The notes under the pieces were generated by a model. It was not told the origin of the DNA and searched no databases. It saw only the letters and a program-made list of their open reading frames with translations. This document shows positions 9,675-14,819 of a stretch of DNA of 18,384 bases, piece by piece. Origin of the DNA: a virus (Duplodnaviria > Heunggongvirae > Uroviricota > Caudoviricetes); the IMG/VR virus record IMGVR_UViG_2645727539_000015. The stretch is one strand, 5' to 3'. Positions within the stretch are counted from its first letter, which is position 1, and the number at the start of each line of letters is the position of its first letter. The translations under genes and the position numbers were made by a program.

Positions 9675-10040
9675 ATGGCTGTGCTTCGTGCGTTACCGGG
9701 CAGAATCAAAACGCTGAACACCCGGCGGATAAATGTCCTGAAGGGTGAACAGCGTCGTGTCAGTGGCAGTGCCCGGGTTTACCTCAAACGTCGTATCTGG
9801 CTGAGGGATGCCGGACACTGTTGTCTTTGTGGACGCGTGGTTGACCTTTGTGACAGTGAACTCGATCACCGCATTGCACTTCAGTTTGGTGGTGGTAATG
9901 AGGAAATGAATCTCTGGACGCTCTGTACCGAATGCCATCGCCAGAAGTCAGTCAGTGAAACGGCGAGTGGTATGCCGGACCCGACGTTGCCGGAAGTGTC
10001 CGGAGGTCATGGCAGGGCAGACGATATCATCGGACTGTGA
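9675..10040 (+). CDS. HNH endonuclease (terminase-associated type)
   Basis: Motif CCLCGRVVDLCDSELDHRIALQFGGGNEEMNLWTLCTECHRQK (Cys pairs plus H-N-H); GAGGA SD; sits upstream of terS as in HK97-like phages. Confidence 0.8.
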   Translation: MAVLRALPGRIKTLNTRRINVLKGEQRRVSGSARVYLKRRIWLRDAGHCCLCGRVVDLCDSELDHRIALQFGGGNEEMNLWTLCTECHRQKSVSETASGMPDPTLPEVSGGHGRADDIIGL

Positions 10041-10130
10041 CCCGCCCAGGGGGGGGTATCATCCGGCGAAAAAAACGATCGCCACGGACACCGCGCCCCC
10101 TCTCATGCAGAGAAAAAATTCCTGTTTCAG

Positions 10131-10260
10131 GCCAGTTAACATGTTAACTGGCTGTCCGGGCATTTTTGCGGTTTTTATCTTTATTATTCAGTTTGTTGTG
10201 CGAAAAAAATGTTAACTGGCTTTTTCAGCAAATGTTAACCAGGCAGCAGTTAACATTTGC
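10131..10260. repeat. cos/pac-like recognition region: 22-bp perfect palindrome plus repeated ATGTTAAC motifs
   Basis: GCCAGTTAACATGTTAACTGGC (10131-10152) is its own reverse complement. Further ATGTTAAC/GTTAACAT copies occur at 10209-10216, 10232-10239 and 10250-10257, separated by an AT-rich block, in the HNH-terS intergenic region. Confidence 0.45.
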
Positions 10261-10330
10261 GGCATGAGACGCCGGGAAAAATGGGCTGAACCATACCCGG
10301 CTGAGTGCGTTATGGACCCGGGAGGAGGCT

Positions 10331-10894
10331 GTGCTGACAACGCAAAAACGAAAATTTGCGCTGGCGCTCATGTCCGGGAAAAACAAAACAGCGTCAGCCA
10401 TTGCCGCCGGTTATTCGGCGAAGACCGCCAGGGTTAAAGGCTCGCAGCTGGCAAAAGATCCGGAGGTGCTCGCGTTTATAGCCCGTAAACAGTCCGAAAC
10501 GGTGGAGGTGGATGAGGTTCCTGTTTACCGGCAGAAAAAATCAGAGCAGGAGGATAAACCCCGTCGCCGTGAGGTGGCTGCAATACCACAGCCGGACGAA
10601 ACAAATCCGGAGATGCCACCGCCCGTGGTGATATCTCCTGGTATTGAGTATATGGAGGACGGTCTTCCCGATCCGGTGAAAGCGATGGGGCGTCTTCTGG
10701 TGGAGAACATTAATACCGACCCCAGGCTGGCGCTGGATGCGGCTTATAAGCTGGCGCAGTTCACGCACCACAAAAAAGGGGATGCCGGTAAAAAATCGGC
10801 AAAAGGTGACGCGGCGAAAAAAGCGGCTAACCGTTTTGCGGTGCCACTACCACCCCGACTGGTGGTGAATAATGATAATGAGGGCAACGGATGA
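10331..10894 (+). CDS. terminase small subunit
   Basis: N-terminal HTH region KRKFALALMSGKNKTASAIAAGYSAKTARVKGSQLAKDPEV typical of the Terminase_2 family; GTG start after GGAGGAGG; stop overlaps the terL start (ATGA). Confidence 0.7.
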   Translation: MLTTQKRKFALALMSGKNKTASAIAAGYSAKTARVKGSQLAKDPEVLAFIARKQSETVEVDEVPVYRQKKSEQEDKPRRREVAAIPQPDETNPEMPPPVVISPGIEYMEDGLPDPVKAMGRLLVENINTDPRLALDAAYKLAQFTHHKKGDAGKKSAKGDAAKKAANRFAVPLPPRLVVNNDNEGNG

Positions 10895-12552
10895 TACCTG
10901 TGTGGAGCACGGCCTGCCCGGACTGGGCAGAGCGCCTGAAAAAGGGGCTGTCGATTATTCCGGCCCCGATTTATCCGGATCAGGCTGCACATGCACTGGC
11001 GATTTTTAAACAACTGCGGATTGTGGATGCACCGGGCAGCCCGACGTTCGGGGAGTCCTGCGCACAGTGGGTGTTTGACCTGGTGGCGGCCCTGTTTGGC
11101 TCCTACGATGCGCAGACTGGTGTACGCCATATCAAGGAAGTTTTTATCCTTATCCCCAAGAAAAACTCGAAGTCCACGCTGGCCGCAGGGATCATGATGA
11201 CTGCACTGTTACTGAACTGGCGGCAGGCGGCGGGCTACACGATTCTGGCCCCGACAGTGGAGGTGGCAGCCAACGCCTTCAACCCTGCCAGGGATATGGT
11301 ACGACGGGACGATGATCTGGATGACCTCTGTCAGGTGCAGACACATATCCGGACCATCACCCACCGGGTGACAGACACCACCCTGAAGGTGGTGGCAGCC
11401 GATCCGAATACGGTGTCCGGTATCAAGTCCGTGGGTACGCTGATTGATGAGCTGTGGCTGTTTGGCAAGCAGTACAAGGCGGAGGACATGTTACGTGAAG
11501 CCATAGGTGGCCTTGCCTCCCGCCCGGAAGGGTTTGTGGTGTATACGACCACCCAGTCGAATGAACCGCCCGCCGGGGTGTTCAGACAGAAACTGCAGTA
11601 CGCCCGGGATGTGCGCGACGGCAAAATTCATGATCCGCACTTTCTGCCGGTGATCTTTGAACACCCTCCTGAAATGGTGGAAAGCGGGGCTCACCTGCTG
11701 ATGGAAAACCTCGCCATGGTCAATCCGAATCTCGGCTATTCAGTGGATGAGGCCTTTCTGTACCGGGAGTATCGAAAAGCACGGGAAGCCGGTGAAGAGA
11801 CATTCCGGGGCTTCATGTCAAAACACGCCAATGTGGAAATTGGTCTTGCCCTGCGCTCTGACCGCTGGGCGGGGGCGGATTTCTGGGAAGAGCAGGGCCG
11901 TTGTATCAGCCTGGACGATATCCTGCTGCGTGCTGATGTGGTGACAGTGGGGATTGACGGCGGAGGGCTGGATGATCTGCTGGGGATGTATGTGATTGGG
12001 CGTGACCGGGAGACCCGCGAATGGCTGGGCTGGGGCCATGCCTGGGCGCATGAAACCGCGGTGGTCCGACGGAAGAGCGAGGCGTCCCGGTTTCAGGATC
12101 TTGTTGCCTGTGGAGATATGACCATTGTCCGGCGTGTCGGGGATGACACGGCGGAAGTGGCGGAATATGTGCGTCGCATTCATGAGGCTGAGTTACTGGA
12201 CCATATCGGTATTGACCCGTCAGGGGTGGGGCAGATTCTGGATTCACTGGCGGAAGCCGGGATCCCTGAAGGAATTGTGGTGGGGATAAGCCAGGGCTGG
12301 AAACTGGGTGGGGCCATCAAAACCACCGAGCGCAAACTGGCTGAAGGGGTGCTGATTCACGGTGACCAGCCCCTGATGGCCTGGTGTGTCGGCAATGCCC
12401 GGGTGGAGCCTAAAGGTAACGCCATCCTTATTACCAAACAGGCCAGCGGACGGGGGAAAATTGACCCGCTGATGGCGCTCTTCAATGCGGTATCCCTGAT
12501 GTCCCTGAATCCGGAGCCCAAAAAGAAAGAATATGCGGTTTTTTTCATATAA
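10891..12552 (+). CDS. terminase large subunit (553 aa)
   Basis: Length, position and conserved blocks (FILIPKKNSKSTLAAGIMM Walker-A-like region; C-terminal nuclease region VTVGIDGGGLDDL...IGIDPSG) match phage large terminases. Confidence 0.9.
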   Translation: MIPVWSTACPDWAERLKKGLSIIPAPIYPDQAAHALAIFKQLRIVDAPGSPTFGESCAQWVFDLVAALFGSYDAQTGVRHIKEVFILIPKKNSKSTLAAGIMMTALLLNWRQAAGYTILAPTVEVAANAFNPARDMVRRDDDLDDLCQVQTHIRTITHRVTDTTLKVVAADPNTVSGIKSVGTLIDELWLFGKQYKAEDMLREAIGGLASRPEGFVVYTTTQSNEPPAGVFRQKLQYARDVRDGKIHDPHFLPVIFEHPPEMVESGAHLLMENLAMVNPNLGYSVDEAFLYREYRKAREAGEETFRGFMSKHANVEIGLALRSDRWAGADFWEEQGRCISLDDILLRADVVTVGIDGGGLDDLLGMYVIGRDRETREWLGWGHAWAHETAVVRRKSEASRFQDLVACGDMTIVRRVGDDTAEVAEYVRRIHEAELLDHIGIDPSGVGQILDSLAEAGIPEGIVVGISQGWKLGGAIKTTERKLAEGVLIHGDQPLMAWCVGNARVEPKGNAILITKQASGRGKIDPLMALFNAVSLMSLNPEPKKKEYAVFFI

Positions 12553-12615: not shown

Positions 12616-14553
12616 GTGACTCTTAAACGGGCCTGCTCCCTGCTGACGGTGAAATCCTTCAGTGAGGATGAGCGGGTGATCACCGGGATTGCGTCAACGC
12701 CTTCTCCGGATCGGGATGGTGACATCCTGGAGCCGGAGGGCGCGGAGTTTGGCAGTGCGATCCCGTTTCTCTGGCAGCATGACCATTCCCGCCCGGTGGG
12801 GCAGTGTACGGTGCGCCGGGTCAGCGAAGGGCTGGAAATCACGGCAACACTGGCGAAGCCCGTGCCGGATATGCCATCGCAACTGGCTGCCAGGCTGGAT
12901 GAGGCCTGGGCGGCCATTAAGACCGGGCTGGTCAGGGGGTTGTCCGTGGGCTTCCGTCCTCATGAATACACCTTTCTGGACGGAGGTGGACTGCATTTTC
13001 TGCGCTGGGAGCTGATGGAGGTGTCTGCCGTCACCGTGCCCGCGAATGCGGAATGCACCATCCGGACCATTAAATCTTACGACCGCCTGTTTTCTGCCGC
13101 GTCCGGCAACCGGAAACCGGTGGTGAAAATCGCATCTTCTGCCGGCGCTGCGGCACAGTCAACAACCGTTTTTCATAAGGAAAAGACCATAATGAATATT
13201 GGCGAACAGATTAAAAGTTTTGAAAACAAGCGTGCAGCACTGGCAGCCTCCCTTGAGGAGGTCATGACCAAAGCCGCAGAGGAAGGGCGCACGCTGGATG
13301 TGGAGGAGGAAGAGCATTACGACAACACCGCAGCGGAAATCCGTCAGGTGGATGCGCATCTGAAGCGCCTGCGTGAACTGGAAGCCGGTAAGGCCGCCAC
13401 GGCACAGCCGGTGAAACAGGCTGGTAACGGGAATTTGGCCGCGGTGGCTTCAGCGCCGGTGATCCGTGTGGAGCAGAAACTGGATAAGGGGATTGGTTTC
13501 GCACGTTTTGCCAAATCGCTGGCTGCGGCTAAAGGTGTCCGCTCTGAAGCCCTGGAAGTGGCCCGTCGTCAGTATCCGGATGACAGTCGTCTGCATCATG
13601 TCCTGAAATCGGCAGTGGGCGCGGGGACCACCACGGATCCGCAGTGGGCAGGCAGCCTGTCTGAATATCAGGAATACGCACAGGACTTTATTGATTACCT
13701 GCGTCCTCAGACCATTATCGGGCGATTTGGTCAGGGCGGGATCCCGGCCCTTCGTCAGGTGCCGTTCAATATCCGTGTGCACGCCCAGGTGTCGGGCGGT
13801 GCTGCCGGCTGGGTGGGTGAGGGTAAGGCAAAACCCCTGACGAAGTTTGATTTTGAATCCATCACCTTCAGTCATGCGAAGGTGTCGGCCATTGCGGTAC
13901 TGACGGAAGAATTGATCCGTTTTTCCAGTCCGGCTGCTGATGCACTGGTCCGTAATGCGCTGGCGGAAGCGGTGGTGGCGCGTCTGGATACAGACTTTGT
14001 GGACCCGAAAAAAGCGGCGGTGGCAGATGTCTCCCCGGCGTCCATCACCCATGATGTGAAGGGCACGGCATCAAGCGGTAACCCGGATGCGGATGCAGAG
14101 GCGGCGTTTGGACAGTTTGTGGCAGCAAACCTGCAGCCCACCGGTGCGGTCTGGCTGATGTCCAGCACCAATGCCCTGGCGCTGTCCATGCGTAAAAATG
14201 CGCTGGGTCAGAAGGAATATCCGGACATGACCCTGCTGGGTGGCTCCTTCCAGGGGCTGCCGGTGATTGTCTCCCAGTACGTGGGTGACCAGCTGGTGCT
14301 GGTGAATGCCCCGGATATTTATCTGGCGGATGACGGCGGCGTGGCAGTGGATATGTCCCGCGAGGCATCACTGGAAATGCAGTCTGATCCGACCGGCGAC
14401 AGTACCACGCCGTCGCCGGTGGAGCTGGTTTCCATGTTCCAGACAGGCAGCGTGGCCATCCGTGCGGAGCGCTGGATCAACTGGCGTCGTCGCCGTACCG
14501 CGGCGGTGGCGGTGATCACAGGAGTGAACTACGGCAGTGCGTCCGGCGGCTGA
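12616..14553 (+). CDS. prohead protease (HK97/S78-type) fused to HK97-fold major capsid protein (645 aa)
   Basis: N-terminus ITGIASTPSPDRDGDILEPEGAEF...WQHD...PVG...GLSVGF...EVSAVTVPAN is prohead-protease-like; a central coiled-coil/delta-like segment follows; the C-terminal ~400 aa are capsid-like (AGWVGEGKAKPLTKFDFESITFSHAKVSAIAVLTEEL). GTG start after AGGAGG. Confidence 0.8.
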   Translation: MTLKRACSLLTVKSFSEDERVITGIASTPSPDRDGDILEPEGAEFGSAIPFLWQHDHSRPVGQCTVRRVSEGLEITATLAKPVPDMPSQLAARLDEAWAAIKTGLVRGLSVGFRPHEYTFLDGGGLHFLRWELMEVSAVTVPANAECTIRTIKSYDRLFSAASGNRKPVVKIASSAGAAAQSTTVFHKEKTIMNIGEQIKSFENKRAALAASLEEVMTKAAEEGRTLDVEEEEHYDNTAAEIRQVDAHLKRLRELEAGKAATAQPVKQAGNGNLAAVASAPVIRVEQKLDKGIGFARFAKSLAAAKGVRSEALEVARRQYPDDSRLHHVLKSAVGAGTTTDPQWAGSLSEYQEYAQDFIDYLRPQTIIGRFGQGGIPALRQVPFNIRVHAQVSGGAAGWVGEGKAKPLTKFDFESITFSHAKVSAIAVLTEELIRFSSPAADALVRNALAEAVVARLDTDFVDPKKAAVADVSPASITHDVKGTASSGNPDADAEAAFGQFVAANLQPTGAVWLMSSTNALALSMRKNALGQKEYPDMTLLGGSFQGLPVIVSQYVGDQLVLVNAPDIYLADDGGVAVDMSREASLEMQSDPTGDSTTPSPVELVSMFQTGSVAIRAERWINWRRRRTAAVAVITGVNYGSASGG

Positions 14554-14597
14554 GTCTGATGAGGAGGACGGGAGGCGTGCGCCTCCCGTAACAGGTT

Positions 14598-14819
14598 ATG
14601 GCAAAGATCCGATATCTGCAGGGCACGCATGATGCCCGGGCCGGGGATATCCGTGATGTGGCACAGCCGTGTGCGGAGGTGCTGGTTCGCCTGGGAAAGG
14701 GGGAGTACATCACGGTGCGACGTCCGGCAGGTCAGAAAAAGAAACGTGATGCGGAGCATGGCGAATGTGGAACCTTTTACGGCGAACCCGAAAAAACCAG
14801 AAATCAGGACGTGACGTAA
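14598..14819 (+). CDS. hypothetical small protein (73 aa), overlaps the portal start by 55 nt
   Basis: ORF from the track, preceded by a perfect 7-bp hairpin at 14570-14587; no recognisable domain. Confidence 0.25.
   Translation: MAKIRYLQGTHDARAGDIRDVAQPCAEVLVRLGKGEYITVRRPAGQKKKRDAEHGECGTFYGEPEKTRNQDVT

Follow-up and report, generated by a model that had tools for sequence, protein, structure and literature searches.

Does the DNA between an HNH endonuclease gene and the small terminase gene terS of a lambdoid prophage hold the site at which the phage chromosome is cut for packaging and, if so, where does the cut fall and which sequence elements belong to it? This question is raised by positions 10041-10330 of the 18,384-nucleotide stretch of viral DNA analysed here (hereafter the window). 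A preliminary description had proposed a cos/terminase recognition region in this interval, consisting of a G8 tract (10049-10056), a 22-bp perfect palindrome (10131-10152), an AT-rich block and three further copies of the motif ATGTTAAC, and each of these elements is indeed found where it was placed. From the comparisons described below, we estimate at about three in four the probability that the interval serves as cos in a packaging module of the HK97 type, which combines a large terminase, an adjacent HNH protein and 3'-protruding cohesive ends. In kind it is an ordinary HK97-type, HNH-associated cos, in which the details of modest interest are a conserved G tract and an expanded motif array.

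Packaging genes and a conserved non-coding block

According to the gene annotation, the window covers the late region of a lambdoid prophage of E. coli, in which a DNA methylase gene, three tRNA genes and the genes for a NanS-type esterase, holin, lysozyme, Ant and Rz are followed by the HNH gene, the interval, terS, terL and the genes for a protease-capsid fusion, portal and head-tail adaptor. The region is 95-97% identical to that of the Stx phages 1717, BP-4795, 2851, YYZ-2008 and phi330 (genus Pankowvirus), and the prophage family includes many Shiga-toxin phages (e.g., 2851, BP-4795, 1717 and the Stx1a/Stx2c phages). The region was found in 1254 of the 5426 complete E. coli genomes (median copy number, two), and the cos block itself in 1246 of them, often in more than one copy each; the IMG/VR contig L002 is identical to the window over 10000-10400. 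An IS3-family transposase gene (rve integrase core; 17692-18369, minus strand) lies directly after the head-tail adaptor gene, which suggests that this prophage copy may be defective, being disrupted in its head-tail genes, and that its cos site may therefore be out of use here. Elsewhere in the window, the methylase gene of the phage occupies 1031-1969, and the tRNA genes (Met, Arg, Arg; 2010-2259) precede a gene for a TerB-domain protein (2357-2860). The TerB-domain gene and the tRNA genes occupy the spot of stx in Stx phages, and no stx gene is present within the window. In the head region (12616-17350) terL is followed by the protease-capsid fusion (645 aa, S78 protease plus HK97-fold capsid) and an 861-aa portal with a long C-terminal extension, the capsid gene being ahead of the portal gene.

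The proteins encoded on both sides of the interval belong to a recognizable packaging module. TerL (10891-12552, plus strand; PF03354 and PF20441) is of the HK97 type, with both the TerL_ATPase and TerL_nuclease domains, and its sole PDB match is 6Z6D (E 2.2e-9), which we take to be the HK97 large terminase; it is 47.6% identical to TerL of Xop411 and 21% identical to that of phage D3. The small terminase TerS (10331-10894, plus strand; PF03592, E 7e-9; phrog_641) contains an N-terminal PF03592 helix-turn-helix domain, which is its best-conserved part: compared with TerS of Salmonella phage FSL SP-016 (49% identical), the first ~60 residues are conserved best. Relatives of TerS with 40-49% identity occur in Atlantibacter, Enterobacter, Kluyvera, Erwinia, Kosakonia, Phytobacter, Pantoea, Citrobacter and phage FSL SP-016, and no similarity was detected to HK97 gp1 or D3 TerS, which are of a different family. 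The HNH endonuclease gene (9675-10040, plus strand; PF01844, E 3.8e-6; phrog_589) is the last gene before cos and lies 290 bp upstream of terS, across cos; FSL SP-016, Xop411, D3 and HK97 have the corresponding arrangement. Its product is 70% identical to the HNH protein of FSL SP-016 and weakly similar to that of Xop411 (E 8e-5), and BLASTP gave it no significant similarity to HK97 gp74 (E 0.27). In HK97, gp74 stimulates cos cleavage (PMC9410871), and an HNH gene adjoining the terminase genes is a hallmark of HNH-dependent cos packaging (PMC13595911).

Directly upstream of terS, the DNA corresponding to window positions 10045-10148 is kept at 72-79% identity in relatives, whereas TerS itself is only 40-49% identical. 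Matches to this block were found in prophages of other Enterobacterales (Atlantibacter, Enterobacter, Kluyvera, Erwinia, Kosakonia, Pantoea and Citrobacter), as well as in Salmonella phage FSL SP-016. An open reading frame at 9955-10215 has no family match and overlaps this conserved non-coding block, and is probably not a gene. When the 141 unique cos regions were sorted by type, 76 were of a short type with a single motif copy located at the terS start, and 61, all E. coli-type, were of a long type with five copies and a 182-bp insert (10149-10330); the other four have a GTG start (GTTAACGTGTTAAC) and otherwise the short-type layout. The insert is missing from most relatives and is specific to the lineage of E. 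coli prophages. Almost every one of the 1246 block-carrying E. coli genomes has the long type, the short type being found in only 4 E. coli genomes.

Predicted position and polarity of the chromosome ends

The first of three lines of evidence on the position of the cut is a 42,956-bp metagenome contig, IMGVR_UViG_3300015186_000014, from a relative whose TerS and HNH proteins are 98 and 90% identical, respectively, to those of FSL SP-016, and in which both ends are capped by Illumina adapters. This adapter evidence comes from one contig, which represents a relative and not an E. coli member of the group. At its left end, adapter sequence ending in ...GCTCTTCCGATCT is fused to CTCATTCGTAGAAAAAAT, i.e., the adapter is directly followed by CTCATTCGTAG... 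with the boundary before CTCATTCG; at its right end, ...CCATGGACAC is directly followed by AGATCGG (also written as ...CGATCGCCATGGACAC fused to AGATCGG), and the last phage bases are GGACAC. In prophage copies of the relatives the same junction reads GGACAC, then C(G/T)C(G/C)CCCCCT, then CTCA, and the 10 nt in the middle are absent from both adapter-capped ends. Because blunt-ending removes a 3' overhang, the loss of these 10 nt from both blunt-ended ends points to a 10-nt 3' overhang. The GACAC that precedes it is near-universal among relatives, GAAAC being found in 2 of 263 matched loci.

The other two lines come from deposited phage genomes. The record of the Pseudomonas phage D3, the ends of which were reportedly determined experimentally by Sharp in 1996 and by Kropinski in 2000, ends in GGACACCGCGCCCCCA, which matches window positions 10086-10101 (GGACACCGCGCCCCCT) at 15 of 16 bases and has the same final base, despite the low identity of D3 TerL. 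D3 also resembles the window in having HNH as the last gene before the end and a G-rich tract, and differs from it in having an unrelated TerS and an unrelated left end (GGTCTTTTTCC...). The record of the Xanthomonas phage Xop411 starts with CCCATTCGCAGAAAAA (CCCATTCGCAGAAAAATT), which matches the CTCATTCGCAGAAAAAAT of the family at 21 of 24 bases (z 8.4) and has the same first base. Xop411, Xp10 and ZP3 (Xipdecavirus) have 3' cos ends, HNH as the last gene and a left end homologous to that predicted here. The sequence at the overhang site differs in Xop411 (GGACAGTCT, presumably a 9-nt overhang), and this phage has neither a PF03592 helix-turn-helix TerS (its p02 shows weak C-terminal similarity only) nor the GTTAAC array. 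Its close relative ZP3 has been typed as COS 3' by PhageTerm (PMC11437452), and HK97 has a 10-nt 3' overhang (PMC11331095).

Taken together, the adapter-capped contig, D3 and Xop411 are three independent lines that place the predicted cut at one and the same nucleotide. With the HNH protein assisting, the terminase would introduce a top-strand nick between 10101 and 10102 and a bottom-strand nick between 10091 and 10092, leaving a 10-nt 3' overhang of sequence CGCGCCCCCT, so that the chromosome in the virion would have 10102 (CTCATGCAG...) as its first position and 10101 as its last. The predicted right end thus has GGACAC (10086-10091, plus strand) as its last double-stranded bases, as in the adapter-capped contig, followed by the predicted protruding strand (10092-10101, plus strand), which is assigned by homology to the ends in relatives. 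The predicted left end (10102-10130, plus strand; CTCATGCAGAGAAAAAATTCC...), assigned from Xop411 and the adapter-capped contig, includes an A6 tract at 10113-10118 (+12 to +17) and varies at 2 of its 29 positions among 103 unique E. coli variants. Homology to physically mapped ends of relatives lends good support to the proposal of the preliminary description that cos lies between the HNH gene and terS, but the probable cut itself, the GC-rich block GGACAC/CGCGCCCCCT/CTCA at 10086-10105, was missing from the features it had listed.

The predicted polarity of the ends distinguishes the site from that of lambda, which has a 12-nt 5' overhang and needs no HNH protein: the ends of the relative's contig are devoid of the junction bases, which indicates a 3' and not a 5' overhang. 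Headful (pac) packaging, in which the interval would have no defined cleavage site, has in its favour that small terminases of the PF03592 type occur commonly among pac phages (e.g., SPP1 and SF6), and the weak PDB matches are to proteins of this type. Such packaging yields permuted, redundant DNA, whereas the relative's contig has two unique adapter-capped ends that indicate a ~10-nt 3' overhang, in agreement with the deposited ends of D3 and Xop411. With a TerL of the HK97 cos type and an HNH gene next to the terminase genes (PMC13595911) added to this, we consider pac packaging very improbable.

Apart from these three lines, the sole hint from within the E. coli lineage is an E. coli-type contig (L028/L456) that begins 1 nt before the predicted left end, which is weak support since it could be an assembly break. 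The scan of viral contigs for further adapter-capped ends gave only IMGVR_UViG_3300015186_000014, a first metagenome scan gave none, and the pattern used for a second one was too unspecific (0 of 120 matches with the cos block). Contigs encoding exactly this TerS were tried as end markers and proved uninformative, their ends corresponding to window positions 10065 and 10203, off the predicted cut; contig ends in the repeat zone (L037, L064, L472 and L491) were treated as assembly breaks. In the searched literature, the overhang sequence appears in no phage paper, nothing was found on the cos of phage 2851, and the phi330 paper is silent on ends. A prediction of the ends at base level provides a test of which prophages are still packageable and can guide the design of cos plasmid or transduction assays; it also aids the reading of read pile-ups and accounts for breaks in assemblies within the repeat zone.

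The G tract and the right-end arm

Upstream of the predicted cut, a conserved element is the G8 tract (10049-10056, plus strand), which lies at -53 to -46 relative to the top-strand cut predicted here and forms an upstream subsite of cos. By chance alone, about 1.4 runs of G8 or C8 are expected in the window, and the significance of the tract comes from its conservation and not from chance statistics: a run of 5-12 G is present in 141 of 141 unique relatives, always 28-30 nt before GACAC. Among more distant phages of the HK97 type, 8 of the 10 records sampled have a G-rich tract at -55 to -41 from the right end. These are HK97 and HK022 (both G9, -51 to -43), D3 (GGGGTGGGGCGGG, -53 to -41), Xop411 (GGGCAGGGG, about -54 to -46), phi1026b (GGGGAGGGGGGG, -54 to -43), Gordonia phage Antonio (G7, -53 to -47), Streptomyces phage Shawty (G6, -55 to -50) and Edwardsiella phage EPP-1 (GGGTAGGGGGTGGG, about -55 to -42); of the two sampled records that have no G tract, that of a Paenibacillus phage shows a C run in its place, and that of a Staphylococcus phage shows no run of either kind. 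The comparison with cos regions of HK97-like phages that had been suggested earlier yields a G tract at a similar distance from the right end in HK97, HK022, D3 and Xop411. In HK97 and the window, the G9 or G8 tract is followed by ATCA, some 45-50 nt before the end.

The tract lies on the side that is packaged last, where it would be read by TerL or the HNH protein, or would act in termination like cosQ of lambda, a separate element upstream of the cut; the likeness to cosQ is that of a separate conserved element in this position. TerL or HNH, or a role like that of cosQ, is suggested because the TerS families differ among phages with the G tract, whereas TerL and HNH are shared. No description of a G tract as a cos subsite was met in the searchable literature, the coverage of which is limited, and its presence at a fixed distance from the end in distantly related HK97-type phages may point to a little-noticed subsite.

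Between the G tract and the cut, the right-end arm (10057-10085, plus strand) contains a conserved CGATCGCC at 10076-10083 with a GATC site, which is kept across 76 short-type sequences; Xop411 has GATCGCC at a similar place. This CGATCGCC (a GATC Dam site) lies 19-26 nt ahead of the top-strand cut and 9-16 nt ahead of the overhang. Positions 10058-10075 are 72% identical to the short-type consensus and have lost a GTAAAC hexamer located at -33.

Upstream of the G tract the sequence is non-homologous among relatives, so that the tract marks the boundary at which their homology begins. This boundary, and the fact that palindromes are typical nuclease targets, would fit a cut elsewhere in the interval, for example in the 22-bp palindrome or at the G8 tract, in which case the GC-rich block would be a binding site and no more. 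Yet adapter-capped ends, D3 right end and Xop411 left end all agree on one position, the G9 of HK97 ends 42 nt before the mapped end of that phage, and the palindrome is missing in the short type, which together make a cut at either element quite unlikely. The cut between 10101 and 10102 is hence retained as the preferred prediction.

The DNA bordering the G tract was also compared in single family members. When the sequence upstream of the tract in L094, L145, L090 and L087 was set against that of HK97 (L102 600-690), some family members were seen to share the AT-rich sequence of HK97 (TGAAATCATTTCAAATG...), with z values of 5.8-8.8 for the sequence common to HK97 and L094 and L145, and others to have the HNH stop codon directly before the tract. 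This pattern of shared and unshared sequence means that the right-end arm of cos is itself mosaic. In the PPompW prophages (L417 2560-2700, PPompW_132418; hits H89-H94), an ISEc20 element of the IS110 family abuts the G tract, of which ~5 G are left; the lysis genes and HNH are gone in these prophages, and Q and tRNA genes are followed by the IS, cos and terS.

The motif array and the insert downstream of the predicted cut

Downstream of the predicted left end lies the palindrome GCCAGTTAACATGTTAACTGGC, with two GTTAAC hexamers at +34 and +42. It is the sole perfect palindrome longer than 12 bp in the window, in which ~0.004 of that length are expected; only 1 of its 22 positions is variable among the 103 E. 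coli variants. Two of the five copies of ATGTTAAC overlap within it (10135-10142, minus strand, and 10141-10148, plus strand), and the three others (10209-10216 and 10232-10239, plus strand, and 10249-10256, minus strand) are contained in 12-nt inverted repeats at 10209-10260, candidate binding sites for TerS or another protein, that occur in the E. coli long type only. No further copies are present in the 18.4 kb, for which 0.41 are expected. The two groups of copies are separated by the AT-rich spacer (10153-10208), which belongs to the lineage-specific insert and carries two T5 tracts (10163 and 10172) and one A7 tract (10203); it is missing from short-type relatives, varies at 13 of 56 positions among the 103 variants and has a GC content of 26% over 10163-10208, versus 53.5% in the window. 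Behind the array, a poorly conserved leader (10261-10330, plus strand; 23 of 70 positions variable) ends in the terS ribosome-binding site GGGAGGAGG (10320-10328).

These comparisons change the standing of several of the elements that had been listed as parts of cos. The G8 tract is a conserved part, but since the insert is absent from most relatives, and ATGTTAAC is the start codon there, the AT-rich block and the three additional copies are not core elements of the family's cos and belong to the insert of the E. coli lineage. The preliminary description had moreover read the repeats as flanking a bend site; no match to the IHF consensus WATCAANNNNTTR with one mismatch or fewer is found in 10041-10330, and the interval has no IHF-consensus bend site.

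The origin of the array can be read from the two types. In the short type, ATGTTAAC is the start of terS (ATG TTA ACA, encoding MLT), preceded by a GGAGG ribosome-binding site and embedded in GT(A/T)AACATGTTAAC in 76-80 relatives; in the long type, the present terS start is GTG CTG ACA (also MLT), located after the insert, and its sequence GTGCTGAC is a diverged copy of ATGTTAAC. Judged by this alignment, the ATG at 10141 is a relic of the ancestral terS start codon. Around it, the former ribosome-binding zone has dropped to 41% identity to the short-type consensus, whereas the GTWAACATGTTAAC core is 92% identical. Hexamers of the form GT(A/T)AAC are located at -33, +34 and +42 in the short type and at +34, +42, +110, +133 and +148 in the long type.

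That the motif copies, palindrome and AT-rich block could be functionless debris of the duplication and insertion that separated terS from cos, only 10049-10130 being functional, fits this history: the first copy is a relic start, the current start is a diverged copy, the insert is confined to one lineage, and short-type relatives manage with a single motif pair and no spacer. Against this reading, a comparison of the 103 unique E. coli variants gave 0 variable positions out of 38 within the motifs and 44 out of 162 outside them in 10131-10330 (Fisher p 4e-5), a difference drawn from closely related, recombining prophage copies that are not independent sequences. The persistence of the relic copy next to a lost ribosome-binding site and the predominance of the long type in block-carrying E. 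coli genomes also speak against debris, which we regard as improbable. The invariance of the motif, together with the decayed ribosome-binding zone and the conserved helix-turn-helix domain of TerS, favours the view that the motifs have a sequence-specific reader.

Such a reader could in principle act in regulation and not in packaging, the repeats being an operator for a phage or host DNA-binding protein or forming hairpins in the late RNA by which translation of terS is tuned. In relatives, the motif overlaps the start codon and ribosome-binding site of terS, which is a classic place for autoregulation, its invariance fits any sequence-specific reader, and the single-strand folding of the sequence beats all 200 shuffles (z -3.9). 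On the other hand, no gene-strand promoter-like site or terminator was found in the interval, and the search of Rfam returned a single match at chance level and no family. Besides, the nearest motif copy is 75 nt upstream of the present terS start, too far to occlude its ribosome-binding site, and when terS and cos were separated the motif held its distance to the cut (+34/+42) and not that to terS. A regulatory role is thus not the likely one, though it deserves some weight.

For a reader involved in packaging, TerS is a plausible candidate, the likeliest by analogy with HK97, in which binding occurs just downstream of the cut, and with cosB of lambda. In lambda, cosB consists of R3-I1-R2-R1 between cosN and Nu1. 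The window resembles it in layout only, in that the cut is separated from the small terminase gene by an AT-rich spacer and several short repeats of either orientation, and differs from it in its terminase families (PF03354/PF03592 versus gpA/gpNu1), in having no IHF consensus and in showing no sequence similarity. The TerS of HK97 binds a site close behind the cut, at +15 to +29 (PMC13595911). This site has no sequence counterpart in the window; the TerS family differs from that of HK97 and D3, so that the binding site is not transferable and is a feature specific to HK97 and not of the class. HK97 is like the window in the order HNH, cos, terS, terL, in a homologous TerL and in the 10-nt 3' overhang, assigned to the window from its relatives; it differs in the overhang sequence (CGCCGCCAAA versus CGCGCCCCCT) and in the start of terS, at +50 in HK97 and +230 in the window.

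In the proposed mechanism, the GTTAAC/ATGTTAAC motifs, which lie downstream of the cut on the side packaged first, would be the best candidates for the TerS recognition site. In relatives one motif pair (+34 to +47) overlaps the terS start, and in the E. coli lineage the 182-bp insert uncoupled terS from cos and contributed the copies at +110, +133 and +148. Two broader proposals can be made tentatively, and we think them more doubtful than probable: that the G-rich tract is a general subsite of HNH-dependent 3' cos sites from Proteobacteria to Actinobacteria, and that the E. coli lineage may have rebuilt its TerS recognition region from the start-codon motif of terS as a five-copy array on the insert, similar to cosB of lambda.

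The relic terS start also opens a 24-codon frame (10141-10215) for a very hydrophobic peptide (MLTGCPGIFAVFIFIIQFVVRKKC), which extends to 41 codons in a few variants. As the frame has no ribosome-binding site, it is probably not translated.
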